64,000 bases of DNA, from NCBI RefSeq assembly GCF_026626745.1, contig NZ_JAPNJW010000002.1, positions 1,510,151 to 1,574,150 of the forward strand. The letters run 5' to 3'. How positions within the stretch are numbered: the stretch's first letter is position 1; every line of letters begins with the position of its first letter. Under the pieces are notes generated by a model. The model was given only the letters and a program-made list of their open reading frames with translations. It did no database searches and was not told the DNA's origin. Made by a program: the position numbers and the translations under genes. Shown piece by piece: positions 1,495-61,653 of the stretch. Source of the stretch: Nannocystis sp. RBIL2. GTDB lineage: Bacteria; Myxococcota_A; Polyangia; Nannocystales; Nannocystaceae.

Positions 1495-2531
1495 CCTGGC
1501 ACGTTCACGGCAGCTACCTCTACTACCTCACCCAGGCGCCGCACGAATTCTACCTGCCCGTAAAGCCAGGTCGACCCGAGGGCTACGGCGGGCGCAGCGG
1601 CAGCTTCGCCTGGGGCGCCAACGTCCACGAGGTCCCGGTCGAGGTCCTCGCGCAGCAGCCGTTCGACGTCGTCCTGTTCCAGTCGCGCCGCAACTACGAG
1701 TGCGATCAATTCGAGGTCCTCGGCGCCGCCCAGCGCCGGCTGCCGCGCGTCTACCTCGAGCACGATCCGCCGCGCGAGTCGCCGACCGACACCCGCCACC
1801 CCGTCGACGACCCCGACGTCCTGCTCGTCCACGTCACCCCGTTCAACGCCCTGATGTGGGACGCCGGGCGCACCCCCGTGCGGGTCGTCGAGCACGGCGT
1901 CGTCGTCCCCGACGACACGACTTACAGCGGCGAGCTCGCGCGCGGCATCGTCGTCGTCAACGACCTCGCGCGGCGCGGGCGTCGGCTCGGCCGCGACGTG
2001 TTCGACCGCGTGCGCGCCCACGTCCCGCTCGACCTGGCCGGCATGGACTCGGCCGCGCTCGGCGGCCTCGGCGACCTGCCCCTGCGCGAGCTCCACGCCC
2101 GGCTCGGCCGCTACCGCTTCTTCTTCAACCCGATCCGCTACACCAGCCTCGGCCTGGCGGTGTGCGAGGCGATGATGATCGGCCTGCCGATCCTCGGCCT
2201 CGCCACCACCGAGATGAGCACCGCCGTGCAGAGCGGCGTCAACGGCTACGTCGAGACCGACCTCGACCGCCTGCTCGCGCACATGCGGCGCCTGCTCGCC
2301 GACCCCGCCGAGGCCGCCGAGCTGGCCGCAGGCGCGCGACGGATCGCCCGCGAGCGGTTCGGCATCGGCCGCTTCGCCGCCGACTGGTCGCGGGTCCTGG
2401 GCGAGGTCACCGGATGTCCCGAGGGACAGCTCGTCGCGCCCGACACCGGATGTCCCGAAGACCAGCTCATCCCGCCGATCGCCGCCTGTCCCGCGGGACA
2501 GGCCCCCGAGCCGGCCCGGAGGACCGCGTGA
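1474..2531 (+). CDS. GT1/GT4-type glycosyltransferase; C-terminal about 35 aa encoded by three hairpin-repeat copies (GCPEGQ..GCPEDQ..ACPAGQ)
   Basis: GTG start at 1474 (VRRLRVLTWHVHGSY...); central YRFFFNPIRYTSLGLAVCEAMMIGLPILGLATTEM..VQSGVNGY matches GT1 E-x7-E region; ORF upstream of 1474 is out-of-frame overlap with previous gene. Confidence 0.75.
2411..2502. repeat. 3 tandem hairpin-repeat copies (ATGTCCCGAGGGACAGC type) translated in-frame as tail of CDS 1474-2531
   Basis: atgtcccgagggacagc / atgtcccgaagaccagc / ctgtcccgcgggacagg. Confidence 0.7.
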
Positions 2532-4399
2532 AGCCGCTGCCGTTCGAGACCGGCGCCGGCGTCGGCCAGCCGCAGAGCCCGCTGCGGATCGCCATGATCA
2601 GCGAGCACGCCTCGCCGCTCGCCCCGCTCGGCGGGCGCGACAGCGGCGGCCAGAACGTCTACGTCGCCCAGGTCGCGCGCCACCTCGGCCGCCTCGGCCA
2701 CCGCGTCGACGTGTTCACCCGCCGCGACAGCCCGACCTTGCCGCCGGTCGTCGAGCTCGCCGACGGCGTGCGCGTGATCCCGGTCGACGCCGGCCCGCCC
2801 GCGCCGCTGGCCAAGGAGTCGCTGCTGCCGCTCATGCCCGCCTTCACCCGCGAGGTCGCGGCCCACGCCCGGCGCGAGCGCTACGACCTCGCCCACGCCA
2901 ACTTCTTCATGAGCGGCCTCGTCGCCGCCGAGCTCAAGCGCGAGCTCGGCGTCCCGTTCGCGGTCACCTTCCACGCGCTCGGCAAGGTCCGGCGCCAGCA
3001 CCAGGGCCAGGCCGACGGCTTCCCCGACGAGCGCTTCGCCATCGAGGCGCGGATCGTCGCCGAGGCCGACGTGATCGTCGCCGAGTGTCCGCAGGACGAG
3101 GTCGACCTCATGACCCTCTACGCGGCCGACCCCGAGAAGCTGGTCATGGTCCCGTGCGGCTTCGACCCCGAAGAGTTCTGGCCGGGCGGTCGCGCCGAGG
3201 CCCGCGCCGCGCTCGGCCTCGGCGACGGCGATCGCATCGTCTTGCAGCTCGGGCGCATGGTCCCGCGCAAGGGCGTCGACAACGTCATCCGCGCGCTCGC
3301 GCGGCTGCCGGGCGAGCTGCGGGCGCGGCTCGTCGTCGTCGGCGGCGAGTCGCGCCGGCCCGATCCTGCGCTCACCCCCGAGATCGGCCGATTGATGGCG
3401 GTCGCCCGCGACGAGGGCGTCGCGGAGCGCGTCACCTTCGTCGGCAGCCGCGGCCGCGGCGAGCTGCGCGACTACTACGTCGCCGCCGACGTGTTCGTCA
3501 GCACCCCGTGGTACGAGCCGTTCGGCATCACCCCGCTCGAGGCCATGGCCTGCGGCGTCCCGGTCATCGGCGCCAACGTCGGCGGCATCGCCCACACCGT
3601 CGCTCACGGCGAGACCGGCTACCTCGTCCCGCCGAGCGACCCCGACGCCCTGGCCGACAAGCTCGCCCTCGTGCTGTCGCAGCCGCGCCTGGCCCGGCGC
3701 CTGGCCCAGCTCGGCCTGCAGCGCGTCCACGCGTTGTTCACCTGGGAGAAGGTCGCCGCTCGCCTGGCCGACGCCTTCGCCGCGGCCGCCGGTCGGCGCC
3801 CCGCCCAGGCGCCCACCGCCGCCTTCGCCGCGGTCGACCGCGGCTTCGACGACCTGCTCGCCGTGCTGTCGCGCGCCAAGACCTGCCTGCGCGACGACAT
3901 CGTGCGCGCCGCCGACCTCGTCAGCGGCGCCTTCGCCCGCGGCGGCAAGGTGCTCGTGTGCGGCAACGGCGGCAGCGCCACCGACGCCCAGCACTTCGCC
4001 GCCGAGCTCGTCGGCCGCTTCCTCGCCCCCGACCGCGCCGCCTTGCCGGTCATCGCCCTCAACGCCGACACCGCGGTGTTGACCGCGTGGGCCAACGACG
4101 TCGGCTACGCCGACGTCTTCGCCCGCCAGGTCCGCGCCTACGGCCGCCCGGGCGACGTCATGTTCGGCATCTCGACCAGCGGCCGCTCGGCCAACGTCGT
4201 CGCCGCCCTCAAGACCGCGCGCGACTGCGGCCTGCGCACCTTCGCCTTGCTCGGCGGCACCGGCGGCGAGGCCGGCGACCTCGCCGACTGCGCCCTCATC
4301 GTCCCCTCGCCCGACACTCAGCGCATTCAGGAGGTCCACACCCTGGCCCTGCACCTGATCTGCGAATTGGTCGAAGCGCGGGTGGCTCCATTGTCGTGA
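2528..4399 (+). CDS. gmhA: Bifunctional fusion: GT4 glycosyltransferase (N, about 420 aa) + GmhA sedoheptulose-7-phosphate isomerase SIS domain (C, about 190 aa)
   Basis: GTG 2528 overlaps the previous stop by 4 nt; N-term LRIAMISEHASPLAPLGGRDSGGQNVYV..GT4 motifs FVSTPWYEPFGITPLEAMACGVPVIG; C-term GGKVLVCGNGGSATDAQHFAAEL..FGISTSGRSANV..RIQEVHTLALHLICE collinear with E. coli GmhA. Confidence 0.8.
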   Translation: MKPLPFETGAGVGQPQSPLRIAMISEHASPLAPLGGRDSGGQNVYVAQVARHLGRLGHRVDVFTRRDSPTLPPVVELADGVRVIPVDAGPPAPLAKESLLPLMPAFTREVAAHARRERYDLAHANFFMSGLVAAELKRELGVPFAVTFHALGKVRRQHQGQADGFPDERFAIEARIVAEADVIVAECPQDEVDLMTLYAADPEKLVMVPCGFDPEEFWPGGRAEARAALGLGDGDRIVLQLGRMVPRKGVDNVIRALARLPGELRARLVVVGGESRRPDPALTPEIGRLMAVARDEGVAERVTFVGSRGRGELRDYYVAADVFVSTPWYEPFGITPLEAMACGVPVIGANVGGIAHTVAHGETGYLVPPSDPDALADKLALVLSQPRLARRLAQLGLQRVHALFTWEKVAARLADAFAAAAGRRPAQAPTAAFAAVDRGFDDLLAVLSRAKTCLRDDIVRAADLVSGAFARGGKVLVCGNGGSATDAQHFAAELVGRFLAPDRAALPVIALNADTAVLTAWANDVGYADVFARQVRAYGRPGDVMFGISTSGRSANVVAALKTARDCGLRTFALLGGTGGEAGDLADCALIVPSPDTQRIQEVHTLALHLICELVEARVAPLS

Positions 4400-4421: not shown

Positions 4422-5162
4422 ATGACCCTCGTGATCGAATCACCCCTCGCGGACAAGATCGTGCTCGTCACCGGCGGCGGCTCGGGCCTCGGCGCCGAGA
4501 TCGGCCGCACCCTCGCGGCCGCCGGCGCCCACGTGATCGCCGCCGACATCCAGACCGGCCCGCTCGCCCGCCTCGTCGCCGAGGTGCGCGACCTCGGCGG
4601 CCGCATCGAGGCCGCCGAGCTCGACGTCCGCGACGCCGAGGCCGGGCAAGCCTTGATCGACGCCATCGTCGCCCGCCACGGCCGGCTCGACGTCCTCGTC
4701 AACAACGCCGGCACCGACAAGACCCTCGCGGTCGACGAGCTCAGCGTGGACGACATCGACCGCGTCCTCGCCGTCAACCTGCGCGGCCCCTTCGTCCTCA
4801 GCCGCGCCGCCTTCCCGCGCCTGCGCGCCCAGGGCGGCGGCTACATCGTCAACATCGTCTCGACCGCGGCCAAGCGGGCCTGGCAGAACGCCAGCGCCTA
4901 CCACGCCAGCAAGTGGGGCCTCCTCGGCCTGTCGCACGCGCTGCACGTCGAGGGCCGCCCGTTCGGCATCAAGGTCACCGCGCTGCTGGCCGGCGGCATG
5001 CGCACCCCCTTCATCCTCGACCGCTTCCCCGACACCCCGATCACCAACCTCCAGGACCCGCGCAACGTCGCCGAGACCATCCGCTTCCTCCTCGCCATGC
5101 CCGGCGAGTCGGTCGTCCCCGAGCTGATGGTCGTGCCCATGCGCGAGACGAGCTGGCCATGA
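4422..5162 (+). CDS. Classical short-chain dehydrogenase/reductase (SDR)
   Basis: TGGGSGLG Rossmann motif, NNAG, catalytic YHASK; 246 aa. Confidence 0.85.
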   Translation: MTLVIESPLADKIVLVTGGGSGLGAEIGRTLAAAGAHVIAADIQTGPLARLVAEVRDLGGRIEAAELDVRDAEAGQALIDAIVARHGRLDVLVNNAGTDKTLAVDELSVDDIDRVLAVNLRGPFVLSRAAFPRLRAQGGGYIVNIVSTAAKRAWQNASAYHASKWGLLGLSHALHVEGRPFGIKVTALLAGGMRTPFILDRFPDTPITNLQDPRNVAETIRFLLAMPGESVVPELMVVPMRETSWP

Positions 5163-5743
5163 CCCGCCTCCGCCCCGCCGCCTTCCTCGACAAGGACGGC
5201 ACCCTCATCGACGACGTCCCCTACAACGTCGACCCCGCCCACGTCCGCCTCACCCGCGGCGCCCGCGACGGCGCCTGGTCGCTGCGGGCCGCCGGCTACG
5301 CCCTCGTCGTCGTCACCAACCAGTCCGGCGTCGCCCGCGGCCTGTTCAGCGCCCACGACCTGCTCGGCGTCCAGGCCCGCATCGAGGACCTGCTCGACCT
5401 CGAGCTCGACGGCTTCTACTGGTGCCCGCACCTGCCCGCCGGCGTCGTCGCCGAGTACGCCATCGTCTGCGGCTGCCGCAAGCCCGCGCCCGGCCTGCTG
5501 ACCCGCGCCGCCGCCGAGCTCGGCCTCGACCTCGCGCGCTCGTGGATGATCGGCGACATCGCCAGCGACGTCGAGGCCGGCCGCCGCGCCGGCTGCCGCA
5601 CCGCCCTGATCGCCGCCTCGCTGCCCCCGGCCCTCCGCCCCGCGCCCACCCTCGTCGCCGCCGACCTCGCCGAGGCCGCCCGCCGGATCCTCGGCGACAC
5701 CGCCCGCAGCGACCACGACGAGCACCCCGCGCCCCTCGCCTGA
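5159..5743 (+). CDS. gmhB: D,D-heptose 1,7-bisphosphate phosphatase (HAD family)
   Basis: AFLDKDGTLIDDVPY HAD motif I, VVVTNQSGVARG, CxC..CRKP zinc motif (CGCRKPAPGLL), MIGDIASDVEAG motif; ATGA overlap with SDR stop. Confidence 0.8.
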   Translation: MTRLRPAAFLDKDGTLIDDVPYNVDPAHVRLTRGARDGAWSLRAAGYALVVVTNQSGVARGLFSAHDLLGVQARIEDLLDLELDGFYWCPHLPAGVVAEYAIVCGCRKPAPGLLTRAAAELGLDLARSWMIGDIASDVEAGRRAGCRTALIAASLPPALRPAPTLVAADLAEAARRILGDTARSDHDEHPAPLA

Positions 5744-5784
5744 GCGCCCGCGATGCTCTTTCGCAGCCCAAGATCGCCGGCTCG

Positions 5785-5880
5785 TTCGGACATGCCCTCT
5801 TCGACATGTCCAAAAAACCATGTCATTGGATCTGCCAGATCGGTCCTTCCAGACATGTCCCTCAAGGCATGTCTCAAAAC
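5785..5880. repeat. Hairpin-repeat cluster (GGACATG-loop-CATGTCC family) in gmhB-hldE intergenic region
   Basis: ggacatgccctcttcgacatgtcc ... agacatgtccctcaaggcatgtctc. Confidence 0.75.
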
Positions 5881-5904
5881 ACACCTTCACCCGGAGCGCC
5901 CGCG

Positions 5905-7368
5905 ATGACTCACGTCCTGCTCCCCGTGCTCGACGCCTTCGCCGACCTGCGGACCCTCGTGATCGGCGAGGCCATGCTCGACACCTACCTCGACGGCCAC
6001 AGCGAGCGGCTGTGCCGCGAGGCCCCGGTGCCCGTCGTCGACGTCGACGCGCGCCGCGACGTCCCCGGCGGCGGCGCCAACACGGCGGTCAACGCCGCCG
6101 CGCTCGGGGCCCGGGTCACCTTCCTCTCCGTCGTCGGCGGCGACGACGAGGCCGACCGTCTCGCGCGCGCCCTGGCGGCCCTCGGCGTCCCCGCCCACGG
6201 CCTCGTGCGCGCCGGCGGGCGCCGCACCCTCGTCAAGCAGCGCGTCCTCGCCGGCGGCCAGATCCTCCTGCGCCTCGACGCCGGCAGCCGCGACGACCTC
6301 GACCCCGTCACCGAGGCGCGCCTGTGCGAGCGCCTGCGGGCCGCCTGGGCCGACGTCGACGCGGTCATCGTCTCCGACTACGGCTACGGCGTCCTCACCG
6401 ACGGCGTGATCGACGAGATCGCCGCCCTGCAGGCCGCCCACGCGCGCGTCCTCGTCGCCGACGCCAAGGACCTGCGCCGGCTCGCGCGCGCCCGGCCCAC
6501 CGCCGTCAAGCCCAACTACTGCGAGGCCGCGCGCCTGCTCGGCCTCAGCAACGGCCACGGCGACGGCCGCGTCGAGCAGATCGCCGCCCACGAGGCCGAG
6601 CTCCTGCAGATCACCGGAGCGCGGGTCGCCGCCGTCACCCTCGACTGCGCCGGCGCCCTGGTCTTCGAGACAGGTCAGCCCGCCTACCGCACCTACGCCC
6701 GGCGCTCGTCCGACGCCAACGCCACCGGCGCCGGCGACACCTTCGTCAGCGCCCTCGCCCTCGCCCTCGCCGCCGGCGCCCCGACCCACGCCTGCGCCGA
6801 CCTGGCCTCCAGCGCCGCCAGCCTGGTCGTCGCGCGCGACGGCACCACCGCCTGCAGCGCCGCCGAGCTGCGGGTCCACCTCGCCTCGCAGGACAAGCTG
6901 CTCGGCCACGACGACCTCGCCTTGCTCGCCGACTGCCTGCACCGCGCCGGCAAGCGGCTCGTGTTCACCAACGGCTGCTTCGACATCCTCCACCGCGGCC
7001 ACATCACCTGCCTCAGCCGCGCCAAGGCGCTCGGCGACGTCCTGATCGTCGGCCTCAACGCCGACGCCAGCGTCCGCCGGCTCAAGGGCGACACCCGCCC
7101 GATCAACTGCGCCGCAGATCGGGCCCAGGTGCTGGCCGCCCTGTCGTGCGTCGATCACATCGTCGAGTTCGCCGACGACGTGCCGACCCGCCTCATCGAG
7201 CTCGCGCGGCCCGATGTCTACGTCAAGGGCGGCGACTACAGCCTCGACAAGCTGCCCGAGGCCCCGCTCGTGTCGCGCCTCGGCGGCGAGGTCTGCTTCA
7301 TGCCGTACCTCGACGACTTCAGCACCACCGGCCTCCTCGCGCGGCTCGGCGATCGGGGCCCCGGATGA
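5905..7368 (+). CDS. hldE: Bifunctional D-beta-D-heptose 7-phosphate kinase / D-beta-D-heptose 1-phosphate adenylyltransferase
   Basis: N-terminal ribokinase-like domain (GGGANTAVN..., GAGDTF) and C-terminal cytidylyltransferase domain (FTNGCFDILHRGH); alternative ATG at 5869 lies inside a hairpin-repeat element. Confidence 0.9.
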   Translation: MTHVLLPVLDAFADLRTLVIGEAMLDTYLDGHSERLCREAPVPVVDVDARRDVPGGGANTAVNAAALGARVTFLSVVGGDDEADRLARALAALGVPAHGLVRAGGRRTLVKQRVLAGGQILLRLDAGSRDDLDPVTEARLCERLRAAWADVDAVIVSDYGYGVLTDGVIDEIAALQAAHARVLVADAKDLRRLARARPTAVKPNYCEAARLLGLSNGHGDGRVEQIAAHEAELLQITGARVAAVTLDCAGALVFETGQPAYRTYARRSSDANATGAGDTFVSALALALAAGAPTHACADLASSAASLVVARDGTTACSAAELRVHLASQDKLLGHDDLALLADCLHRAGKRLVFTNGCFDILHRGHITCLSRAKALGDVLIVGLNADASVRRLKGDTRPINCAADRAQVLAALSCVDHIVEFADDVPTRLIELARPDVYVKGGDYSLDKLPEAPLVSRLGGEVCFMPYLDDFSTTGLLARLGDRGPG

Positions 7369-8462
7369 GCTGGTCGTCCGCTCGCCGCGTCCTGTGCGTC
7401 CGCCTCGACACCGTCGGCGACGTGCTCATGACCACCCCCGCCCTGCGCGCGCTCAAGGAGGGCCACCCGCAGCGCCACCTCACTCTGCTCACCTCGAGCC
7501 CCGGCGCAGTCGTCGGCCGCCTCGTGCCCGAAGTCGACGACGTCTGGACCTACGACGCCGCCTGGCTCAAGGCCAGCCCCGCGCGCCGCGACGCCAGCCT
7601 CGACCGCGCAATGATCGATCGCCTCCGCGCCGGCCGCTTCGACGCCGCGGTCGTCTTCACCGTCTACAGCCAGAACCCGCTGCCCGCCGCCCTCCTCACC
7701 TACCTCGCCGACATCCCGCTGCGCCTGGCCCACAGCCGCGAGAACCCCTACCAGCTCCTCACCCACTGGATCCCCGAGACCGAGCCCGAGCGCGGCGTGC
7801 GGCACGAGGTCACCCGCCAGCTCGACCTCGTCGCCGCCGTCGGCCTGCGCCCCTCGCATCATAGACTGTCTCTTCGGCCATGTCCTGAAGACCACCTCGT
7901 GGCCGAGGCCGAGCTCCGCCGCCTGCGCCTCGGCCCGCGCTGGCTCGTCGTCCACCCCGGCGCCACCGCCAGCTCGCGCCGCTACCCGCCCGCCGCCTTC
8001 GCGGTGGTCGCCCGCGCCCTCGTCCGCGACCACGGCGTAGGCCTCGTGTTCACCGGCGCCGCCGACGAGGTCTCTTTGGTCGAGCAGATCCGCGGCGCCG
8101 CCGGCGTCCCCACCCACTCGCTCGCCGGCCGCCTCTCGCTGGGCGCCCTCGCGGCCGTCATCGCCCGCGCCGGCCTGCTGATCAGCAACAACACCGGCCC
8201 CGCCCACGTCGCCGCCGCCATGGCCACCCCCGTCGTCGACCTCTACGCCCTCACCAACCCGCAGCACACCCCCTGGGCCGTCCCCGCGCGGGTCCTGAGC
8301 CACCCGGTCCCGTGCGCCCCCTGCTACCGCTCGACCTGTCCCGAAGGCCATCACCTGTGCCTGCGCGGCATCCCCCCCGCCACGGTCGTCACCGCCGCCC
8401 TCGAGCTGCTGCGCCCCGACGCCCGCGAAGCCCCCACCGCCGCACCCCTCTCGATGTCATGA
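7365..8462 (+). CDS. GT9 heptosyltransferase
   Basis: VRLDTVGDVLMTTPALRALK, C-terminal NNTGPAHVAAAMATP and CxxCYRxxCPxxHxC Cys motif shared with paralog 8481-9668; ATGA overlap with hldE stop. Confidence 0.85.
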   Translation: MSWSSARRVLCVRLDTVGDVLMTTPALRALKEGHPQRHLTLLTSSPGAVVGRLVPEVDDVWTYDAAWLKASPARRDASLDRAMIDRLRAGRFDAAVVFTVYSQNPLPAALLTYLADIPLRLAHSRENPYQLLTHWIPETEPERGVRHEVTRQLDLVAAVGLRPSHHRLSLRPCPEDHLVAEAELRRLRLGPRWLVVHPGATASSRRYPPAAFAVVARALVRDHGVGLVFTGAADEVSLVEQIRGAAGVPTHSLAGRLSLGALAAVIARAGLLISNNTGPAHVAAAMATPVVDLYALTNPQHTPWAVPARVLSHPVPCAPCYRSTCPEGHHLCLRGIPPATVVTAALELLRPDAREAPTAAPLSMS

Positions 8463-9941: not shown

Positions 9942-11462
9942 ATGACTCGGACGGCGGACAAGACCACCTCTCCGGTGTTTGTTTCGCTGTTGTGGCACAC
10001 GATGGCGGAGACGTCCTCGCAGGATCAGTTCGTGCTGGAGCGCGGCAAGGGCCGCAAGTGGGACGATTTCGGCTTCAAGACGCTCTACAGCCTCTATTGG
10101 CTCCCCGCTGGAGCCGAAGCCAAACAAGCCCGGTACATCGGGCCGATCAAGATCCTCCAGAGCGACGATCGCTCGACGGTGCTCCCCGATCGTTTCGCCG
10201 CGCTGAGCGAGTTTTACTGCAGCCTCGGCCAGAACCCCGAATACTACGAAAACCTCCAGGAGTTGGGTCCTGAGCTGGCTCAGGTTGTCCTGGTCGCGCT
10301 CCGCGACATCGCGTCCGATTCCGAAATAGAAGGAGATTTTGCCGAGCAAGAGGGTATCACCGTGTCGCTGCTTCGCTCGGTCTCAGCCCGCACGGCGATG
10401 AATTTGGCCCGTCAGAGGCTGCACGGCGTCGACGCGGATGTCGCTCCGGCCGAACTCACGTTTCGCTTTACCACGACGCTCTCGAAGGTCCTGCCGACTC
10501 CGTCCGCACCGTACCGCCTTGATGTGAGGCTCTCCGCCAGGGACGGGCGTCTTGGGCGCTTGATGGTGTTGGTCGGCAAGAACGCGACCGGCAAGAGCGG
10601 TTTGCTCAGCGTGCTCGGGCAGGCAGTCAGCGGCCTCGACAGCGAAGCAGGGAGCATCGACCCGCCCATCCGCGGCATCAGCCGTGTGATTGCGATCTCG
10701 TACAGCGCGTTCGACCCCTATCGATACTTCGGGAAGGCTCGACCGTCCACGGCTGTCGGATACTTTTATTGCGGGCTCCGCGATCATCATGGGGTCATCA
10801 ACCTCAAACACGCGTTCGACCGCAGTCACCGTCACCTTCGGCAGCTCGATCCAAGAGCCTGGCGTGACGCGATCCGGGCGTCGGGACTCGCCGACGAGGA
10901 GCCCTCGCTGGCGGCCGTGCTCGAGGAGCCAGACCCGAGCAAGTTGATCGAGCTCATGGAGACGCTCAGCTCCGGGCACAAGATTTTCCTGTTCGTGCTG
11001 GTCAACCTGCTCGCGACGATTCGGCCCCGGGCGCTGGTCCTCATCGACGAACCCGAGATCCATCTCCACCCGAACCTCTTGTCCAGCCTGATGCGCCTGC
11101 TCCACAAGATCCTGGACGAAAGCGACAGCTTCGCGGTCCTGGCCACCCATTCGCCCCAAGTGTTGCAAGAGGTGCCGGCGCGATACATCCGCATCGTCGA
11201 GCGAGTCGACGGGGCGCCCGCATTGAGGCTGTATCCAGGCGAGTCCTTCGGAGCGAACCTTGGCGAGATCATTCGCTTCGCCTTCGGCGTCGATGAGAAG
11301 AGCGCCAACTACTTCAAGATATTGAACTCGACCCTCGACGAGGAGACTCTCCGGCGCTGGTACGATCACACGCTCCACGCATCTTCGCTTAGCCTCGCGC
11401 CCTATACGGTCCTCGCCGATCGCCTCCACGTGAATGAGGAGGACGACGATGAGACGACTTAG
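9942..11462 (+). CDS. ABC/AAA_21-type ATPase, Septu PtuA-like, with about 210-aa N-terminal extension of unknown function
   Basis: Walker A VGKNATGKSGLLSVLG, ABC signature LSSGHKIF, Walker B ALVLIDEPEIHLHP, H-loop LATHSPQV; region GC clearly lower than flanks; start could also be 9840 or 9993. Confidence 0.8.
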   Translation: MTRTADKTTSPVFVSLLWHTMAETSSQDQFVLERGKGRKWDDFGFKTLYSLYWLPAGAEAKQARYIGPIKILQSDDRSTVLPDRFAALSEFYCSLGQNPEYYENLQELGPELAQVVLVALRDIASDSEIEGDFAEQEGITVSLLRSVSARTAMNLARQRLHGVDADVAPAELTFRFTTTLSKVLPTPSAPYRLDVRLSARDGRLGRLMVLVGKNATGKSGLLSVLGQAVSGLDSEAGSIDPPIRGISRVIAISYSAFDPYRYFGKARPSTAVGYFYCGLRDHHGVINLKHAFDRSHRHLRQLDPRAWRDAIRASGLADEEPSLAAVLEEPDPSKLIELMETLSSGHKIFLFVLVNLLATIRPRALVLIDEPEIHLHPNLLSSLMRLLHKILDESDSFAVLATHSPQVLQEVPARYIRIVERVDGAPALRLYPGESFGANLGEIIRFAFGVDEKSANYFKILNSTLDEETLRRWYDHTLHASSLSLAPYTVLADRLHVNEEDDDETT

Positions 11463-12348
11463 GCCGTATGGAGGGGATCCCTGGCAGTCCTTCCTCGATA
11501 TCTGCGGCGCATCGACGCACCAACGGCGTCGTCCGCGGCTCGCGGAGGTCCGCGCGGTCATCGAGGACCGCTATCAGGATTACCTGAATTTGAACGGAGA
11601 CTTCCTCAGAATCGCAGCATACTCCGACTTCTCCAAGGAGCAATCGGACGCGCTCAAGAAATGCTACGAGACCGAGGCGCCGGCGCTCAAACTCCTGAAA
11701 GAGGCGATCCGACAGCTCCAGGACCCGTCAGTCCGCGGCGTCTGTCAGAATTGCGGGCTGAACGAGCCGAACACGTTCGACCACTACATTCCCAAGGACG
11801 AATTCCCGGAGTTTGCGATTCACCCGCATAACATCGTCCCGTGCTGCCAGCAGTGCAACGACCTCCGGCGCCGCAAGCCGTGGCGCGACGAACATGGATG
11901 TCGGACGTTCCACTTCTATTTCGACGATGTCGAAGTGAGTGAAAGACACCTGGTTGCGAGGATCATCCGCGACGGCAACGACGAGCCGCGGATGCTCTTC
12001 GAGTGTTCGTCCTCCCCTGAGGCCCCCGGTTTCGGCGGAAGGTACTCTCGCCACGCGGAGACGCTGCAACTCCCGCGGCGGCTGGAAGAGCGCGCGCCGA
12101 CAGAGCTGGATCGAATCTGCAATGAGTTGGCGGCGACGGCCGAACTGCTGCCCGGAGCTCCAGAGGCTTCGGAAAGAATAGACCGGTTGCGGGACCGGTC
12201 AAGGAACGTCGCTACACGCATGAAGAAGGTCCGCGGCCCGAACCACTGGGAGGTTGCGGCCTGGCATGCGGTCGCGGCGGCTCCGTGGTTCATCGAGCGC
12301 TGCCTCGCGCGCCAGAATAGGGAGGCGAGCTGTGATGACCAGGTCTGA
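11449..12348 (+). CDS. HNH endonuclease-domain protein (PtuB-like)
   Basis: CQNCGLNEPNTFDHYIPKDEFPEFAIHPHNIVPCCQQCN = CxxC..DH..N..CxxCN HNH motif; 14-nt overlap with ATPase stop; alternative ATG 11434. Confidence 0.75.
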   Translation: MRRLRPYGGDPWQSFLDICGASTHQRRRPRLAEVRAVIEDRYQDYLNLNGDFLRIAAYSDFSKEQSDALKKCYETEAPALKLLKEAIRQLQDPSVRGVCQNCGLNEPNTFDHYIPKDEFPEFAIHPHNIVPCCQQCNDLRRRKPWRDEHGCRTFHFYFDDVEVSERHLVARIIRDGNDEPRMLFECSSSPEAPGFGGRYSRHAETLQLPRRLEERAPTELDRICNELAATAELLPGAPEASERIDRLRDRSRNVATRMKKVRGPNHWEVAAWHAVAAAPWFIERCLARQNREASCDDQV

Positions 12349-12808
12349 CTGGCGCCATGACGCGAGGGCGAGCCTCGAGTCGCTGCGCGAGGCGCTCGGC
12401 GAACTCCAGGACAGGTGGGGGTTCGCTTGCGAAGACGATCCGATCGACGACGACGACGACGACGACGACGCTTACGAGTATGATCAGCTCTCCTCAGACA
12501 TCGAGACGGCGCTCGATACGCTCGTAGACGAACTGACCCAGCACCAGGCGACGCCGGACGTGGAAGAGCTCACGGTCGACGAGTTGCTCGCCAGGTATGT
12601 TACGGACGGTCTGGTGAGCCCAGAGCAGGTCAAGGTCGCGGCGGCGCTCGTGGACGCTCTCGGCTCCCGGGGGTCCCGGGGCGCTCGGACCAGCGAGCTA
12701 ATCATGGGGCCGAGCTACGAGCAGCTCCTGAGCGTGGTAGACGCGCTCGAGCGGCTCGTCGACCACACCGCCGACGGGGAGGAAGAACCGGCCAATGCCA
12801 TGGACTGA
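12335..12808 (+). CDS. Small strongly acidic hypothetical protein (poly-Asp run; possible DNA-mimic/immunity factor)
   Basis: 157 aa, DDPIDDDDDDDDAYEYDQ, net very negative; 14-nt overlap with HNH gene stop and with next gene start. Confidence 0.55.
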   Translation: MTRSDWRHDARASLESLREALGELQDRWGFACEDDPIDDDDDDDDAYEYDQLSSDIETALDTLVDELTQHQATPDVEELTVDELLARYVTDGLVSPEQVKVAAALVDALGSRGSRGARTSELIMGPSYEQLLSVVDALERLVDHTADGEEEPANAMD

Positions 12809-13421
12809 CGAGGAAGACCTGGCTCGTTGCCTCGAGCGCGCCGGCGTCGCGCTCGCGGGTCTGCGCGAGCGCTGCTCGGAGGTCGTCGTGTTCGGTTCTC
12901 GCGCGGCGGGCATCGGCGATGCGAGGTCCGACTGGGACGTGCTGTGCGTCGGCGACGGGGCGACGCGGCGGACGCGAGAGCTGGACCTCGTCTGGATCTC
13001 CGCATCATTTACACGTGGCGACGCGTGGACGACGGGCGAGCTCGCGTCGCACGTCGTCACTTACGGGCGATGGATCGTCGGGAACCCGGGTCCATGGGTA
13101 TCCCACGTGGCCATCACTTCGCAGACCGTCAGACGCAAGGTTCGCTGGATCCAGACGCACGTCGACACGTGGCGACGATTCTGGCCGCGCTGCTCGCCCC
13201 AACTGCGAACGCGCTACGCGGCAACGCTGAGGTACAACTTTCTCCGCCTTGATTTTTTGCTGCGCAAACAGGCGGTGCCACCGCGGCAGAGCCTGGATAG
13301 GTGGTTCGCGGAGCTCTCCGATAGGGCAGAGTGGTCCGAAGCGATGGCGGCAGTCGCCAAGGTCAGGGACGACTTCGTCTCCCGCGAATTGCTGCCGCGT
13401 GTGTGCCGGTCGTCTGGCTGA
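12795..13421 (+). CDS. Minimal nucleotidyltransferase (MNT)-domain protein with C-terminal extension carrying a possible HEPN-like Rx4H motif
   Basis: VVVFGSRAAGIGDARSDWDVLCVG = GS-x9-DxD NTase fold motif; C-terminal RWIQTH. Confidence 0.7.
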   Translation: MPWTDEEDLARCLERAGVALAGLRERCSEVVVFGSRAAGIGDARSDWDVLCVGDGATRRTRELDLVWISASFTRGDAWTTGELASHVVTYGRWIVGNPGPWVSHVAITSQTVRRKVRWIQTHVDTWRRFWPRCSPQLRTRYAATLRYNFLRLDFLLRKQAVPPRQSLDRWFAELSDRAEWSEAMAAVAKVRDDFVSRELLPRVCRSSG

Positions 13422-13813
13422 CCGCCTGCCGGCGCACCCGCCTGCCCCCTGGTGCAGGTTACCGCGCGCCACAGATGTGCCCGCCTGTCGCTCGAGCCTG
13501 CTCGTCACCAGAAGGACGGCGTGCAGTAGGACAGCCCACATGCGAGACATCAAGAAATCATAAGCCTCCGCCGCTGCGCGCGAAGCAGCGAAGCTCCGGC
13601 TGAGACCGTCCGCCCCGCCTCGCAGCCTGAGGCGCACGAAACGATTCGATCGCCGCGCACCGTGCGCGACTGCCTGCGACCCTGCAGCGGGCGCAAACGG
13701 GATCCTCAAAAAAGCGGCCCGTACGGCCCGCTACGCCGCATCCCCGACGATTAGTGAGAACGGCCGTGCAGGCAACTGCCAACAAAATCTTCCCCGAGGA
13801 GGGAACACTCGCC

Positions 13814-13999
13814 ATGCATCTCGAACGAGTTGAGACCCGATCGGAACAGCACCACGGCACCGCCGTGGAGCCGTGGAGCAACCTCGACGAGGACGACTTT
13901 CTCCTCGCCGCCGAGGCCAGCCTCGAAGCGCTGCGCGAAGGCGAGGACGAGGAGGAGCTGTCCCCGGACGACATCGAGGAAGTGCCCGAAGATCAGTAG
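13814..13999 (+). CDS. Small acidic hypothetical protein
   Basis: 61 aa ORF with GAGGAGG 9 nt upstream of ATG; no recognisable domain. Confidence 0.3.
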   Translation: MHLERVETRSEQHHGTAVEPWSNLDEDDFLLAAEASLEALREGEDEEELSPDDIEEVPEDQ

Positions 14000-14349
14000 C
14001 CCGGCCTGATCACGCGGTCCGTGCCGATACCACGAATCACCCGAGCGTCGCGGGATTCCTTACATCATCCAGCCCTTGCTCGCTACCGGGCACCGCTCCC
14101 ACCGCGGATCCCAGTCCCAATCGTGCCCCTCGCCCGGAAGAGTAATTGCTGCCCGGGCCGAAGCCCGCGCGAACGCCCTCGAGGCGGCGCCTCGGCGCCT
14201 GCCTGACGCAGCTCGTCGCGGGAGGCCCGGCGCCTCGGCGCCTGCCTGACGCAGCTCGCCACGGGACGCCCGACTCTCGCCCCGAGCTCCCACCCGCGGC
14301 GGATGCGACCCCGCCGTCCCGCCCCGTCCTGCGGCATCATGGCCCTGCC

Positions 14350-16392: not shown

Positions 16393-18297
16393 TCAGGCCA
16401 GCTCGCAGGCCATGTGCGGGCGCTCGTCGGGCAGCGCGAACAGCGGCCGCTCGCGCGGGTGCTGCGACGGCGACAGCTCGTGCACTGCGCCGTCCTCGAC
16501 GAACAGCACCCGGTCGAACAGCGACAGCAAGCTCCAGCGGTGGCACGCGGCCAGCACCGTCGCCTCGGGCGACGACTGGAAGATCGCAGCCAGCACCTCG
16601 CGCTCGGTCGGCGGGTCCAGGGCCGCCGTCGGCTCGTCGAGCAGCAGCAGGTCCCGCGAGTGCGCCCGCAGCAGCCCGCGGGCCAGCGCGATCCGCTGGC
16701 GCTCCCCGCCGGACAGGTTGAGGCCGCTCTGGGCCAGGTGCGTGTCCCAGCCCGCGGACAGCTTGGCGATCACCGGCCCCAGGCGCGCCAGGCGGATCAC
16801 CTGCGCCAGCACATCCTCCGGCACGGTCTCGCCGAGCGTCACGTTGTAGCGCAGCGTCTCCGAGAAGATCTGCGGCTCCTGCGGGATCAGCAGCGTGCGC
16901 TGGGCCAGCGCCTCGAACGAGCTGCGGCGGCCGTCGAACGCCACCTCGCCCCCCTCCGGGCGCAGCATCCCCGCCAGCAACTTCAGCAGCGTCGACTTGC
17001 CGCCGCCGCTCGTGCCGACCACCGCGATCTTCTCGCCGCGGCGGATCGTCAGCGCCCCGCAGCGGAGGGCCGGGGCGTCGCCCGCGTAGTTGAACGCCAG
17101 CGCGTCGAGCCGCAGCTCGCGCCAGCGCGGCGCGGCCGTCGGCGGCGGCGCGACCGTCGGCGACCCGCGCAGCAGCTCGCTGGCGTCTTCGTACGCGGTG
17201 CACGCCTCGACGATGTTGCCGTAATAGGCCGAGAAGGAGCTGATCGCGCCGAAGATCTTGTCGAGGTAGGCGATGAGCACGTAGACCTGGGCCACGTCGA
17301 GCGCGGTGCCCTTCAGGCCGGCGCCGTGGAAGTACCACAGCAGCGACGTCGCCATCACCAGCGCGTAGCCGCAGCTCACCGCCCCCCACTTGAGCTCGCT
17401 GAAGCGCGACACCCGGCGCACCAGCTCGCCGCCCTCGGCCCGCTGGCGCCCGAGGTCGGCGCAGGCCAGCGCCTCGAGGTTCAGCGTCTTCACCGTGACG
17501 ACGTTCGTCAGGTAATCGACGCACACCCGGCCGACCGTGTTGTCGAATTGATTGACCAGGCGGATGTTGTCGACCATGCGGCGGTTGAAGTACAGCATCG
17601 CCGCGATCGTGACCCCGCCCATGACCACCACGTTGGCGGCCACGCGCACGTCGAGGGCCCACAGCGCCACGCTGGCGAGCACCACCTTGACGCTGCCTTC
17701 CAGCACCTGCCACGAATACTGACCGACCACGTTGCCGACCGCGAGCGCCGAGCGGTTTAGCTTGGCCAGGTTCTCGCCCGTGTGGCGCTCGACGTGCCAG
17801 TGCAGCCCGTAGCCGAGCAGCGCCTGGAACACCCCCGTCATCGTCGTCATGCGCGCCTGGTAGGCCACCCCGCTCTGCAGGTAGCGCCCCAGGTGGTGCA
17901 GCAAGATGTTGGCGAAGCGCAGCCCGAGGTAGGCGCCGATGCCGAGCAGCGCCCCCTCGTAGGCGACCTGCGAGAAGCCGTGCTCGACGAACACCCCGAC
18001 CGTGTAGCCGATGGCCCACGGGACCAGCAGCTCGGCAGTGTTGGCGGCGATGAACAGGGCGACGAACGCCCAGAACCGCGACCGGCTGGGCGCCAGGGCC
18101 ACCCACGCGGCCCGCAGCAGCGGCGCCAGGCCGCGCACGGGCGGCAGCGGCCGCGCCGGCCCGGCCTGTTCGCGGGCGCCGACGCCCGCCCACGACAATG
18201 GCGAGAGGAAACGAGCGAGTGCGTGCATGATCACCAATCGGCGCCGGATGACCGGGTCGAAGGGGCGCTCAGCCCCGCAGCTCCACGAGGTTCGCAA
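16393..18297 (-). CDS. Fused ABC transporter permease/ATP-binding protein (exporter type)
   Basis: 6-TM N-terminal domain then GTSGGGKSTLLKLLAG Walker A, LSGGERQRIALARGL signature, LLLDEPTAALD Walker B; true start may be internal Met. Confidence 0.85.
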   Translation of the reverse strand: MRTSWSCGAERPFDPVIRRRLVIMHALARFLSPLSWAGVGAREQAGPARPLPPVRGLAPLLRAAWVALAPSRSRFWAFVALFIAANTAELLVPWAIGYTVGVFVEHGFSQVAYEGALLGIGAYLGLRFANILLHHLGRYLQSGVAYQARMTTMTGVFQALLGYGLHWHVERHTGENLAKLNRSALAVGNVVGQYSWQVLEGSVKVVLASVALWALDVRVAANVVVMGGVTIAAMLYFNRRMVDNIRLVNQFDNTVGRVCVDYLTNVVTVKTLNLEALACADLGRQRAEGGELVRRVSRFSELKWGAVSCGYALVMATSLLWYFHGAGLKGTALDVAQVYVLIAYLDKIFGAISSFSAYYGNIVEACTAYEDASELLRGSPTVAPPPTAAPRWRELRLDALAFNYAGDAPALRCGALTIRRGEKIAVVGTSGGGKSTLLKLLAGMLRPEGGEVAFDGRRSSFEALAQRTLLIPQEPQIFSETLRYNVTLGETVPEDVLAQVIRLARLGPVIAKLSAGWDTHLAQSGLNLSGGERQRIALARGLLRAHSRDLLLLDEPTAALDPPTEREVLAAIFQSSPEATVLAACHRWSLLSLFDRVLFVEDGAVHELSPSQHPRERPLFALPDERPHMACELA

Positions 18298-40604: not shown

Positions 40605-40622
40605 CCATGTCCCGAGGGACAG
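40605..40622. repeat. Hairpin-repeat copy
   Basis: catgtcccgagggacag. Confidence 0.6.
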
Positions 40623-43861: not shown

Positions 43862-43870
43862 GCGGCGCCC

Positions 43871-43970: not shown

Positions 43971-43976
43971 GACCAT

Positions 43977-57723: not shown

Positions 57724-57727
<4 letters not shown>

Positions 57728-58479
57728 TCCTCATGTCCACCGCGAACGTCGCCGCCGATCACTACGAGCTGTACTACTGGCCGGGCATCCCCGGCCGCGG
57801 CGAGTTCGTGCGCCTCGTGTGCGAGGACGCCGGCGCCCCCTACCTCGACGTCGCCCGCCGGCCCGCCTCCGAGGGCGGCGGCGAGGCGGCCATCGTCCGC
57901 GCGCTCGAGTCGTTGCCCGGCCTGCCCGCCTTCGCCCCGCCGATCCTCCGCGCCGGCGAGCTGGTGATCGCCCAGACCGCCAACATCTGCGGCTTCCTCG
58001 GCGATCGCCACGACCTGTCCCCAGGGACAGAAGGCGGCCGCGCCGAGGCCATGCAGCTGCAGCTGACGATCTCCGACCTCGTCGCCGAGGCCCACGACAC
58101 GCACCACCCGATCTCCACCGCCCAGTACTACGAGGAGCAGCGCGACGCCGCGAAGCTGCGGGCCACCGCCTTCCGCGAGCAGCGGCTGCCCAAGTTCCTC
58201 GCCTACTTCGAGCGCGTCCTGCAGCGCAGCGGCGGCCCGTGGCTGCTCGGCGACGCCTGCAGCCACGCCGACCTGTCGCTGCTGCAGGCCCTGCTCGGCC
58301 TCGAGTACGCGTTCCCCCGCGCGTTCGCCCGCCAGGCCCGCCGCGTCCCCGAGCTGCTGCGCCTGCGCGACCGCGTCGCCGAGCGCCCGCGGATCGCCGC
58401 CTACCTCGCCTCGCCGCGCCGGCTGGCCTTCAACGAGAACGGCATCTTCCGCCGCTACCCCGAGCTCGACCCGGCCTGA
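57724..58479 (+). CDS. Glutathione S-transferase family protein
   Basis: N-terminal thioredoxin-like [18 protein letters not shown]; C-terminal helical domain; GTGA overlap with previous stop. Confidence 0.75.
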
Positions 58480-58493: not shown

Positions 58494-58520
58494 AGGCATG
58501 TCCTTCGGGACATGCCCCAA
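58494..58520. repeat. Hairpin-repeat copy in convergent intergenic region
   Basis: ggcatgtccttcgggacatgcccc. Confidence 0.75.
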
Positions 58521-58543
58521 GAGACACACGCCTCGCGCGCTCG

Positions 58544-59715: not shown

Positions 59716-59757
59716 AAGACATGTCTGCACGGACATGTCCTCTTCGCCATGTCACTG
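59716..59757. repeat. Hairpin-repeat cluster
   Basis: gacatgtctgcacggacatgtcctcttcgccatgtcac. Confidence 0.7.
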
Positions 59758-59900: not shown

Positions 59901-60992
59901 ATGCCCACCCGCCGCCGCTTCCTCGCGCTCACCGCCGCCCTCTCGGCAGCCGCTTGCAGACCGCGAGCCACGGCCGCCCCGCCCGAGCCTCCGCCGCGCC
60001 CGCTCAGCCTGCTGGTCTTCGGCGGCACCGGCTTCATCGGCCCGCACCTCGTGCGCCACGCGGTCGCCCGCGGCCACAGCGTCACGATCTTCACCCGCGG
60101 CCGGCGCAAGGTCGACCTGCCCGACAGCGTCGAGCGGCTGCTCGGCGACCGCGACGGTCAGCTCGGCAGCCTCGAAGGCAGGCGCTGGGACATCGTCGTC
60201 GACGACTCCGCCACCCGCCCCGAATGGGTCCAGCAATCGACGCAGCTATTGAAGGACCAAGTCGGCCGCTATCTCTACACCTCCTCGACCGGCGTCTACT
60301 ACCCCTATTTGAAGCCCGGCGCCGACGAGACCTGGCCCGTGCGCACCGAGCTCACCGATCCCGAGGACGGCTCCGAGGCCTACGGCGTGGCCAAGGCCCG
60401 CTGCGAGCGCGAGGTCCTGCAGACCTTCGGCGAGCGCGGCCTCGTCGTCCGGCCGACCTACATCGTCGGCCCCGGCGACACCACCGATCGCTTCCCCTAC
60501 TGGCCCGTCCGCCTGCAGCGCGGCGGCGACGTGCTCGCCCCCGGGCGCCCGGGCGACCCGGTCCAGCTCATCGACGTCCGCGACCTCGCCGAGTTCATGC
60601 TGCGCCTGCTCGAGGACGGTCGCAGCGGCATCTACAACGCAGTCGGCCCGCGCGAGCCGATCACCATGCCGCAATTCCTCGAGGCCGCGCGCGCGGCAGT
60701 CAACCCCGAGGCGCGCCTGGTATGGGTCGACGACTACGCCTTCCTCGAGGCCCACGGCATCCAGGATGCTGTCCCATGGGTCATGTTGAAGGGCAACGAC
60801 CTCGGCCACATGGCGACGCGCAACGCCAAGGCAGTGGCCGCCGGCCTGCGGTTCCGCCCGCTGGCCGACACGGTGCGCGACACCCTCGCCTGGTGGCCCA
60901 CCGTCCCCGCCGAGCGGCGCGACGCGGCGCAGTTCGCCATCACCCCCGAGCAGGAGGCGAAGGCGCTGGCCGAGTGGCGCGCGCGCGGCTGA
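59901..60992 (+). CDS. NAD-dependent epimerase/dehydratase family protein with Tat-like signal
   Basis: RRRFLALTAALSAAA twin-Arg; VFGGTGFIGPHLV Rossmann; YGVAKARCE catalytic YxxxK. Confidence 0.8.
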   Translation: MPTRRRFLALTAALSAAACRPRATAAPPEPPPRPLSLLVFGGTGFIGPHLVRHAVARGHSVTIFTRGRRKVDLPDSVERLLGDRDGQLGSLEGRRWDIVVDDSATRPEWVQQSTQLLKDQVGRYLYTSSTGVYYPYLKPGADETWPVRTELTDPEDGSEAYGVAKARCEREVLQTFGERGLVVRPTYIVGPGDTTDRFPYWPVRLQRGGDVLAPGRPGDPVQLIDVRDLAEFMLRLLEDGRSGIYNAVGPREPITMPQFLEAARAAVNPEARLVWVDDYAFLEAHGIQDAVPWVMLKGNDLGHMATRNAKAVAAGLRFRPLADTVRDTLAWWPTVPAERRDAAQFAITPEQEAKALAEWRARG

Positions 60993-61653
60993 CCGCTACC
61001 GGCGCCTCCGCCTCGGGGTTCCAGGTCGGCCGCCGGCGCGATGCTCCGGACATGTCCTTCAGGCCAGGTTCATCTCGCGGCACCAGCGCGACGCGGACCA
61101 GCTGCAGCTCGCCGCGGTGCGCGGCGAGGAAGCGGACCAGGCGGTCGAAGCGGCGGTGATCCCCGCCCTGCCGCGACCACGGCACGTCGACCCGCAGCGT
61201 CGCCGACCCCGTCCACGACAGCCGCGCGTCGGGCTCGACCAGCCGCACCGCCGCCACCGCGAGCTCGCTCGGCTGGCGCAGCACCAGCTCGATCTTGCCG
61301 AACCACACCGCGCCGTGCAGCAGCCACGGCTTCAAATCGCCGACCGGCACGGGGTAGCGGGCGATCCGGCGCCGCAGCCAGCCGTCGGCCGGGACCTCGC
61401 GGTCGACCGCGCTGCGGGCCAGCGCGAGCATGTTCCACAGCAGGAACGCCGCGAACAGCTGCGGCATCATCGCCACGCCGCACACGACCGCGGTGAACAC
61501 CCCCGCCACGCGCGCGGCGCCCCAGAACTCGTGCGGCGGCCCCGGTTCGGACCAGGCCGGCAGCCCCTCCCGCAGCGCCCGCTCGAGCGCAGTCTCGACG
61601 AAGCTGCGATACGGCTCGCGGGCGACGGGGGGCTGTCCTTCGAGCGCACGCAT
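60940..61653 (-). CDS. Hypothetical membrane protein
   Basis: 237 aa ORF with TM-like segment; 3' end overlaps convergent gene by about 50 nt and covers a hairpin repeat, so C-terminus doubtful. Confidence 0.35.
   Translation of the reverse strand: MRALEGQPPVAREPYRSFVETALERALREGLPAWSEPGPPHEFWGAARVAGVFTAVVCGVAMMPQLFAAFLLWNMLALARSAVDREVPADGWLRRRIARYPVPVGDLKPWLLHGAVWFGKIELVLRQPSELAVAAVRLVEPDARLSWTGSATLRVDVPWSRQGGDHRRFDRLVRFLAAHRGELQLVRVALVPRDEPGLKDMSGASRRRPTWNPEAEAPVAVSRARATRPAPSPPARG
61044..61068. repeat. Hairpin-repeat copy
   Basis: ccggacatgtccttcaggcc. Confidence 0.6.

Follow-up and report, generated by a model that had tools for sequence, protein, structure and literature searches.

REP-like palindromes of Nannocystis: a 14-bp unit repeated in exact register, mainly at the 3' ends of genes

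INTRODUCTION

Repetitive extragenic palindromic (REP) sequences lie mostly between convergent and unidirectional open reading frames (ORFs), 3' of coding regions; they are sometimes intragenic, and they are plausibly transcribed (PMC3733652). Two tags, GTAG and CGTC, are the mark of two large REP superfamilies (PMC3733652). The papers on REPs and REP-associated tyrosine transposases (RAYTs) consulted here, among them the survey PMC3733652, do not mention myxobacteria, and literature searches turned up no REP-like repeats in Nannocystis or other myxobacteria. We describe here a family of short palindromes that recurs throughout a 64,000-nucleotide stretch of Nannocystis sp. RBIL2 (contig NZ_JAPNJW010000002.1, positions 1,510,151–1,574,150), referred to below as the window and numbered from its own first base. 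The family is previously undescribed, and it is distinguished from known REPs by being untagged, very short and chained at exactly 14 bp.

Myxobacterial genomes are very large and GC-rich—the G+C content of the window is ~72%—and classical U-tract terminators are hard to find in them; little is known of how their genes are punctuated. A repeat that marks nearly half of the sampled convergent junctions, and whose stems outlast the decaying spacer around them, is a candidate for a 3'-end signal or for a protein docking site.

RESULTS

The repeat unit and its register

The repeat unit is a 14-bp palindrome, TGTCC-N4-GGACA, that occurs either on its own or head-to-tail with zero spacer. Where units abut, the junction GGACA/TGTCC creates a CATG core and, around it, the decamer GGACATGTCC (variants GGRCATGYCC); the 10 bases that separate successive cores are YCC-N4-GGR. 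CATG follows CATG at a distance of exactly 14 bp in 11 cases in the window, and does so in 237 cases in 55 8-kb blocks from other Nannocystis genomes. Secondary peaks appear in these blocks at 28 bp (36 cases) and 42 bp (11 cases), while spacings one base off-register amount to 2 cases at 13 bp and 8 at 15 bp.

The units at the ends of arrays retain the inner half-site alone, the core reading CCTG or GCTG at –14 and CAGG or CAGC at +14, and for this reason the 14-bp palindrome is a better unit than the decamer. Symmetry centred on the decamer, GGACATGTCC being taken as the middle of the palindrome, was tried and rejected: complementarity between its flanking N4s comes to 262, where 261 would be expected.

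The well-formed copies have the sequence gaagGGCATGTCC-N4-GGACATGCCcttc, with a stem of at least 13 bp, and GGGCATGTCC and GGACATGCCC alternate in these hairpins. Arrays range from 1 to 5 or more units and have no fixed ends. Stems of 20–30 bp arise solely by the chaining of units; what is specified is 14 bp. The palindromic hairpin family that a sequence-only reading had picked out in the window is therefore real, and more regular than that reading supposed, but the loop, said to be often YTTCGR, is an essentially free N4. Only 10 specified bases are common to the copies; loops and flanks vary from locus to locus, and no exact long k-mer is shared. With 10 of 14 bases fixed, repeat finders that depend on exact long k-mers would probably miss the family.

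Enrichment and folding

Enrichment is borne out in the window. GGACATG occurs 23 times where dinucleotide-preserving shuffles give 6.5 ± 2.4, CATGTCC-N2–10-GGACATG 3 times where none is expected, and TGTCC-N4-GGACA 9 times where 0.03 are; when the pattern is relaxed to TGYCC-N4-GGRCA with at most one mismatch, the count is 35 against 9.3 ± 3.0. By codon-score gene calls, GACATGCC has 9 copies in the window's spacers and 0 in coding sequence, which places it joint first among 8-mers by spacer-over-coding enrichment, level with CGCATTGC of an unrelated repeat. A scarcity of CATG through restriction avoidance was considered as the cause of the pattern and rejected: CATG is not depleted (213 observed, 170 expected).

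Perfect hairpins are present at 39220–39243, 43917–43936 and 58495–58516. Fold prediction agrees with the stable hairpins that had been proposed, giving single hairpins energies of –18 to –23 kcal/mol with z-scores of –1.9 to –5.6, and they fold stably on both strands. Complementarity extends into the N4s. Across a unit pair centred on a loop, 189 of 524 N4 positions are complementary, compared with 140 ± 10.5 in shuffles; none of 5000 shuffles reaches 189, and slid controls give 119–142. No family in Rfam matches the window at gathering thresholds.

Location, abundance and taxonomic range

The family has a strong preference for spacers just 3' of stop codons, above all convergent ones. In a sample of 72 Nannocystis loci and the window, arrays are found in 79 convergent spacers, 34 tandem spacers and 7 divergent spacers, and 6 arrays fall in called coding sequences (CDSs). 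With the hairpins by which blocks were selected left out, arrays occupy approximately 44% of convergent spacers (18/41), 9% of tandem spacers (17/186) and 8% of divergent spacers (7/89). Most of those in tandem spacers are no more than a few tens of bases away from the stop codon upstream.

Unselected DNA—the window and four orthologous loci, 148 kb in all—contains 17 arrays, or ~115 per Mb, and extrapolation from these 148 kb gives well over 1000 arrays per genome. Phased units number ~0.29 per kb, with almost none in coding sequence.

One genome from each of 185,579 species was scanned for GGCATGTCC-N4-GGACATGCC, and at least 104 stretches matched. About two thirds of the 104 matches listed are from Nannocystis (N. 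pusilla, N. punicea, N. exedens, N. bainbridge, N. radixulma and Nannocystis metagenome-assembled genomes). The others are single matches in unrelated taxa, many of them resembling ordinary terminators with A and T runs. Further phased pairs, beyond the selecting hairpin, occur at 368 per Mb in the Nannocystis blocks versus 24 per Mb in those of other taxa. Among the matches listed, then, the family is restricted to Nannocystis, and it offers a ready marker for the genus.

Conservation between species

Orthologous DNA from related species allows the arrays to be followed through time. The CheB/CheR fusion protein encoded at 23795–26830, which is 100% identical to a Nannocystis sp. RBIL2 protein, has identities of 94% with its N. 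pusilla counterpart, 90% with that of N. punicea and 87% with that of N. exedens, and an N. pusilla contig (GCA_049060185.1; L109 below) is 93–97% identical to the window between 38.4 and 59.5 kb; no record matched the SDR gene 4422–5162 exactly. The comparison drew on Nannocystis blocks that proved to be orthologous to one another and on orthologues of two parts of the window. It covered five species in all, with a CATG identity of 87–95%. Arrays share their position within the spacer in up to three species, while little of the remaining spacer can be aligned. We compared 21 arrays, 11 of which form an ascertainment-free subset. The CATG core is 91% identical across the 21 arrays, with no gaps, and 87% identical across the 11; the three flanking bases on each side are 80% identical, with 1.4% gaps, and 67% identical in the subset; and N4 is 54% identical, again with no gaps, and 56% in the subset. 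Other spacer DNA is 68% identical with 10% gaps, and coding sequence 89% identical with 0.2% gaps.

Where both members of a pair have changed, six of the nine double changes preserve Watson–Crick pairing, and in one hairpin the entire outer stem has been exchanged, one species having CTTC/GAAAG and another CAGGC/GCCTG. The arrays are vertically inherited; their stems and their register are conserved and their loops are free.

Translated copies

The sequence-only reading held that the repeats are occasionally translated. The case is stronger than was claimed, for the copy number of one protein's tail varies and four units lie in called CDSs where 0.021 are expected from codon shuffling of all called genes. 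The tail belongs to the glycosyltransferase encoded at 1473–2531, a protein 100% identical to one from Nannocystis sp. ILAH1. Pattern matches and a C-terminal 36-bp repeat with one unit per copy (TRF: period 36, 2.6 copies) confirm that three copies have been absorbed into its reading frame. These three coding repeats occupy 2411–2503 on the plus strand: TGTCC-CGAG-GGACA at 2415 is translated GCPEGQ, the degenerate TGTCC-CGAA-GACCA at 2451 GCPEDQ, and TGTCC-CGCG-GGACA at 2487 ACPAGQ. They qualify as family members because the first of them and the intergenic unit at 40606 have an identical 17-mer, ATGTCCCGAGGGACAGC, and because the first tail copy in an orthologous contig, SRR28678145, reads TGTCCCGAGGGACATG. 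As RNA, the tail is predicted to be no more stable than shuffles (z = –0.5).

Comparison of the orthologues, which had been proposed as a check, finds 0, 1, 3 or ~7 units: none in the N. pusilla-like protein, one in that of N. punicea, which ends ...EVTGCPEGQVTEPARRTA, three in the window and about seven in the SRR28678145 contig. The family is in this way a source of protein length variation.

Two perfect units sit in ordinary, conserved coding sequence. One, TGTCC-CTGG-GGACA (37616–37629, plus strand), is inside the CDS at 37299–39092 and is translated ECVPGD; the other, TGTCC-CCAG-GGACA (58016–58029, plus strand), is inside a glutathione S-transferase (GST) gene, 57724–58479, and is translated LSPGT. 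The protein sequence at the latter is identical in L109 and in an N. punicea contig, L108—that is, in three species. An in-frame insertion was considered for this GST unit and rejected, given that identity and a gapless alignment to PDB 3h1n.

A copy-like segment had also been seen at 7858–7885 in a GT9 gene. The peptide it encodes, PCPEDHL, is shared by the GT9 orthologues of three species; being conserved coding sequence, the segment is left out of our count of copies. With the decamer it agrees only when one mismatch is allowed, a level at which ~10.6 chance matches are expected in the window. The second tail repeat of the glycosyltransferase (2449–2469, GGATGTCCCGAAGACCAGCTC, GCPEDQL) and this GT9 segment (7877–7897, GCCATGTCCTGAAGACCACCTC, PCPEDHL) have ATGTCCNGAAGACCA in common, an overlap that may be due to chance or to relatedness.

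Arrays of the window

At least 12 loci had been reported in these 64 kb, and the positions we list, from 2411–2503 through 61048–61066, confirm it. The placement described for several of them is likewise correct: the copies at 39.1, 43.9 and 58.5 kb lie between convergent genes, and those at 5.8 kb between co-directional ones, a gmhB-like gene followed by hldE.

Two arrays share the convergent spacer 39093–39265, and both are conserved in N. pusilla L109. The first (39131–39163) consists of two phased units, TGTCC-GAAC-GGGCA and TGTCC-CGAA-GGCCA, followed by TG; in the second (39211–39243) the perfect hairpin GGGCATGTCC-CGCA-GGACATGCCC comes after a degenerate unit. Between them, at 39175–39194, is a hairpin that does not belong to the family, GGCCGCCG-TCCC-CGGCGGTC, with a T-rich tail, ATTGCCTTTC.

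The convergent spacer 43862–43976 contains a five-unit array (43892–43966; TRF period 14), with CATG at 43904, 43918, 43932 and 43946 and then CATT at 43959. It is positionally conserved in both L109 and L108, and individual units read GGACATGCC where the orthologous unit has GGCATGTCC, or the reverse.

A 64-bp convergent spacer holds the array at 58494–58526, made up of the perfect hairpin AGGCATGTCC-TTCG-GGACATGCCC and the unit TGCCC-CAAG-AGACA. This array is degenerate in the more distant N. punicea (L108) and absent from N. pusilla (L109). Exactly at its site L109 has a 564-bp segment (18385–18949 of that contig) that contains no family units and apparently carries a small minus-strand ORF.

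A divergent spacer holds three phased units (59717–59756; CATG at 59720, 59734 and 59748), which lie 160 bp upstream of the gene 59901–60992; they are conserved in L109, and their flanks carry indels. Past the other end of that gene, 56 nt beyond its stop codon, the decamer GGACATGTCC followed by TTCA-GGCCA (61048–61066) makes one unit with one mismatch. This unit falls within the low-periodicity C-terminal tail of a minus-strand ORF, 60940–61653. The ORF loses its codon periodicity over the last ~50 codons, overlaps the end of the convergent gene 59901–60992 and translates the GGACATGTCC unit as KDMSG; its end may be, as in the glycosyltransferase, a tail that arose by read-through.

The remaining intergenic copies are single units. 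TGTCC-CAGA-GGACA (35259–35272) is a pattern match in an intergenic spacer, CATGTCC-CGAG-GGACAGC (40606–40622) is 9 nt 3' of the stop codon of the minus-strand gene 40631–41134, and the variant TGCCC-CTTC-GGACA (44880–44893) is in the tandem spacer 44814–45114.

The 5.8-kb spacer has a history of its own. In an N. pusilla-like contig (L106) the gmhB-like and hldE genes overlap and there is no spacer; in the window they are 160 bp apart, and the spacer contains five units in two phased runs (5788–5874; CATG at 5791, 5805 and 5819, and at 5854 and 5868); in N. punicea (contig L105) the spacer is 524 bp long and composed of ~110-bp modules, each with GGACATGTCC-N4-GACATTCC. The window's version is bounded by a duplicated 14-mer, GAGCGCCCGCGATG (~5742–5755 and 5892–5905), and both expanded spacers are flanked by duplicated GAGCG(A/C)CCGCGATG, a copy of the start region of hldE. 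Judged from these sequences, the spacer appears to have grown by local duplication, common to the window and N. punicea. Its units have A/T-rich N4s and may behave differently from the hairpins of convergent spacers.

Other repeats nearby

Several other repeats accompany the family. A different tandem repeat, with periods of ~47, 64 and 109 bp, fills an 800-bp spacer at 21258–21676; GCTCGCATTGC occurs in it 9 times, along with a small palindrome, CGCTCGTGAGCG, and all copies of CAATGCGAGC are found here. At 28382–28584, a 52-bp tandem repeat (3.9 copies) covers the end of the gene 26827–28422 and the adjoining convergent spacer. Each of its copies holds the hairpin TCCGCTC-GCCGA-GAGCGGA, and it looks like a second, unrelated hairpin repeat in a convergent spacer. 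A perfect (100%) tandem duplication of 86 bp occupies 31145–31337, in a region where no convincing gene is called (29996–31638), and ~39 GTC triplets run along the plus strand at 46241–46358, inside the minus-strand gene 45115–46614, with several repeats of 15–21 bp around them. From 10001 to 14000 the G+C content drops to 0.62–0.66, versus 0.72 elsewhere, and the coding signal is weak; this patch, with which the heptose/glycosyltransferase cluster ends, may have been acquired. In N. punicea L105, 650 bp of a ~60-bp tandem repeat (17333–17982) separate two GT9 genes that are 18 bp apart in the window; every copy includes GCAATGTCATGAC, one more palindrome centred on CATG (TGTCATGACA), whose flanks differ.

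DISCUSSION

Stem-loops at the ends of transcripts

The sequence-only reading called these repeats REP-like. The resemblance is real—the family is high-copy, extragenic, palindromic and clustered, with a bias toward 3' ends and convergent spacers—but membership of the classical REPs is not supported: the GTAG or CGTC tag is missing. Among 118 hairpins, GTAG/CTAC occurs within 18 nt in at most 3 cases for each side and orientation, and CGTC/GACG in at most 10, which is background at this G+C. None of the five genes bracketed by arrays in ~0.6 Mb is RAYT-like, a transposase of ~150 aa being what was sought, although this sample is too small to exclude one.

We lean, with some reserve, toward regarding the family as untagged, genus-specific, REP/BIME-like extragenic palindromes (BIME, bacterial interspersed mosaic element) that would form stem-loops at the 3' ends of genes. 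A single-stranded unit, whether RNA or DNA, would fold on its N4 loop; crossing the CATG junctions, the stem would take in the adjacent half-units together with their N4s and reach 10–15 bp. The elements would then act as stem-loops at transcript 3' ends, read from either strand, where they would bar 3' exonucleases or give a U-tract-free signal for pausing or termination, in the way described for REPs elsewhere. A folded single strand is favoured because of the loop-centred complementarity and the compensatory changes; these, together with the REP-like pattern, lead us to place stem-loops at transcript 3' ends first among the mechanisms, as a function that seems somewhat more probable than not.

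Several observations weigh against it. The loop is fixed at 4 nt (237 spacings at 14 bp versus 8 at 15 and 2 at 13), and more than 1000 loci keep one and the same stem sequence; a plain RNA hairpin needs neither a particular stem sequence nor a fixed loop. In unselected arrays, complementarity of the inner stem is no higher than base frequencies predict. A terminator scan of 38–46 kb found no T-run after any family hairpin, and canonical intrinsic termination is disfavoured for want of a U-tract. In transcription-oriented tandem spacers, a comparison of low power, G·U-compatible mismatches (38) do not exceed A·C (34), so that there is no RNA-strand signature and selection on sense RNA is not visible. 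About 8% of divergent spacers hold arrays, the one at 59.7 kb included. The figures for spacer types are themselves approximate, coming from a crude codon-score gene caller, and many of the comparison blocks were chosen for carrying a perfect hairpin, although those hairpins were excluded where relevant.

The single stem sequence of the whole family points to a sequence-specific partner protein, or to a templated, homogenizing process that keeps the palindromes intact. We keep both alive because a bare hairpin leaves the stem sequence, the 4-nt loop and the absence of indels unexplained.

Other explanations

It is conceivable, if rather unlikely, that the repeats are read as double-stranded DNA: operator-type sites whose 5-bp half-sites, about one helical turn apart, are bound by a dimeric Nannocystis protein. 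Cooperative binding to abutting sites in 14-bp register at gene ends would form a roadblock or insulator, or the arrays might be sites for gyrase or a nucleoid protein where convergent genes generate supercoils; in Escherichia coli, BIMEs bind gyrase and IHF. A duplex reader would account for one sequence conserved family-wide and across species while N4 remains free, for exact spacing in which indels are not tolerated, and for switches between GGACATGCC and GGCATGTCC at the same position, which keep the consensus rather than the pairing. The inner-stem complementarity, no greater than base frequencies predict, the lack of RNA-strand bias, and the units kept in conserved coding sequence far above expectation all fit it as well. 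A protein reading 14 bp of duplex has no need, however, of mutual complementarity between N4s or of compensatory outer stems, and 14 bp is a non-integral number of helical turns, which would put neighbouring dimers on different faces of the helix. We give similarly tentative credence to a broader form of the proposal, in which the arrays are docking sites for a dedicated, genus-specific protein that reads TGTCC-N4-GGACA either as duplex or as extruded hairpin. If that is true, the protein would polymerize in 14-bp register at gene ends as a kind of genome-wide 'punctuation', stopping or insulating converging transcription or managing the supercoils that result. It would also account for coding-like conservation of stems and register, for free loops, and for the tolerance of units inside genes.

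Less probable is non-autonomous mobile DNA, comparable to REPINs or to miniature inverted-repeat transposable elements (MITEs), spread by a RAYT or some other transposase and either selfish or secondarily useful. The high copy number suits this explanation, as do differences in presence between close relatives, such as the 58.5-kb array missing from L109; the 5.8-kb spacer, which has duplicated 14-mer borders, does not exist in L106 and measures 160 bp in the window but 524 bp in L105; and the glycosyltransferase tail with its 0 to ~7 copies. But there is no GTAG or CGTC tag, and with only 10 bases specified and loops and flanks that differ, no master copy is visible. Most arrays, moreover, keep their place in the spacer across five species despite the divergence of the DNA around them, and no small gene bracketed by arrays in the ~0.6 Mb resembles a transposase.

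It is very unlikely that the palindromes are a functionless by-product of mutation, made and repaired in tolerant spacers by quasi-palindrome template switching and slippage. Such a process could replace a whole outer stem by a different complementary pair, as has happened between species; it could change tandem copy number; and it would show no RNA-strand bias. It leaves unexplained, nevertheless, why one specific sequence recurs at more than 1000 loci, why CATG is conserved to roughly the degree of coding sequence beside spacer DNA that decays, and why convergent spacers are preferred 5-fold.

Least likely of all, ordinary Rho-independent bidirectional terminators would suit GC-rich hairpins that come right after stop codons, mainly in convergent spacers, and the single scan matches in unrelated taxa do resemble classical terminators with A/T runs, but the family hairpins of 38–46 kb all fail the T-run scan (the sole match in a family spacer, at 39175–39194, being the different hairpin), the Nannocystis flanks are gaag...cttc rather than runs of A or T, and terminators share no single stem sequence genome-wide.

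Comparison with known systems

Beside other short repeats, the stem-loop family of Nannocystis has partial counterparts in several bacteria. The dRS3 element of Neisseria, ATTCCC-N8-GGGAAT, has a free centre and hundreds of copies, which are found in neisserial intergenic mosaic elements (NIMEs), border longer repeat units and are used by phages for integration. DNA uptake sequences (DUS) form hairpins downstream of genes when they occur as inverted pairs; singly, DUS are asymmetric sequences, connected with DNA uptake and plentiful within genes. These systems share with ours a short, free-centred palindromic motif, present in many copies in intergenic DNA. The Nannocystis units differ in that they abut one another and in that GACATGCC is confined to spacers (9 copies, 0 coding), and where uptake sequences are asymmetric, common in genes and present at ~1 per kb, the Nannocystis units are palindromic and phased at ~0.29 per kb. 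[quoted passage not shown]

In Mycobacterium tuberculosis, the TRIT motif is a hairpin of conserved sequence, often between convergent genes and without a good U-tract. Both it and the Nannocystis repeat are conserved hairpins at gene ends in a GC-rich host; the sequences differ, and TRIT lacks 14-bp chaining. For a duplex reader, the architectural analogue is the met box, 8-bp palindromes in tandem that are bound cooperatively by MetJ. Met boxes, too, are short palindromes set head-to-tail in exact register, but they occupy a handful of sites in the promoters of one regulon, whereas the Nannocystis arrays occupy roughly a thousand sites at the 3' ends of genes.

Palindromic repeats that lie in frame and add segments of peptide have precedents in the CGTC-tagged REPs and in Rickettsia palindromic elements, which are 100–150 bp long. 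The Nannocystis units lack the CGTC tag, and their translated copies take the form of a 36-bp C-terminal tandem repeat and of single 14-bp units.

The closest likeness is to the REPs and BIMEs of Enterobacteria and Pseudomonas: high-copy, lineage-specific extragenic palindromes, capable of forming stem-loops with variable loops. According to PMC3733652 and PMC2817692, these form regular arrays, mostly 3' of genes and occasionally intragenic, as the Nannocystis units do. REPs measure 20–40 bp, whereas the Nannocystis unit has 14 bp and 10 specified bases; no RAYT was seen in the small Nannocystis sample of ~0.6 Mb; and the units, without GTAG or CGTC, follow one another with zero spacer in strict 14-bp register. 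With this family the REP concept comes to include a 14-bp unit that has no tag and is repeated in exact register.

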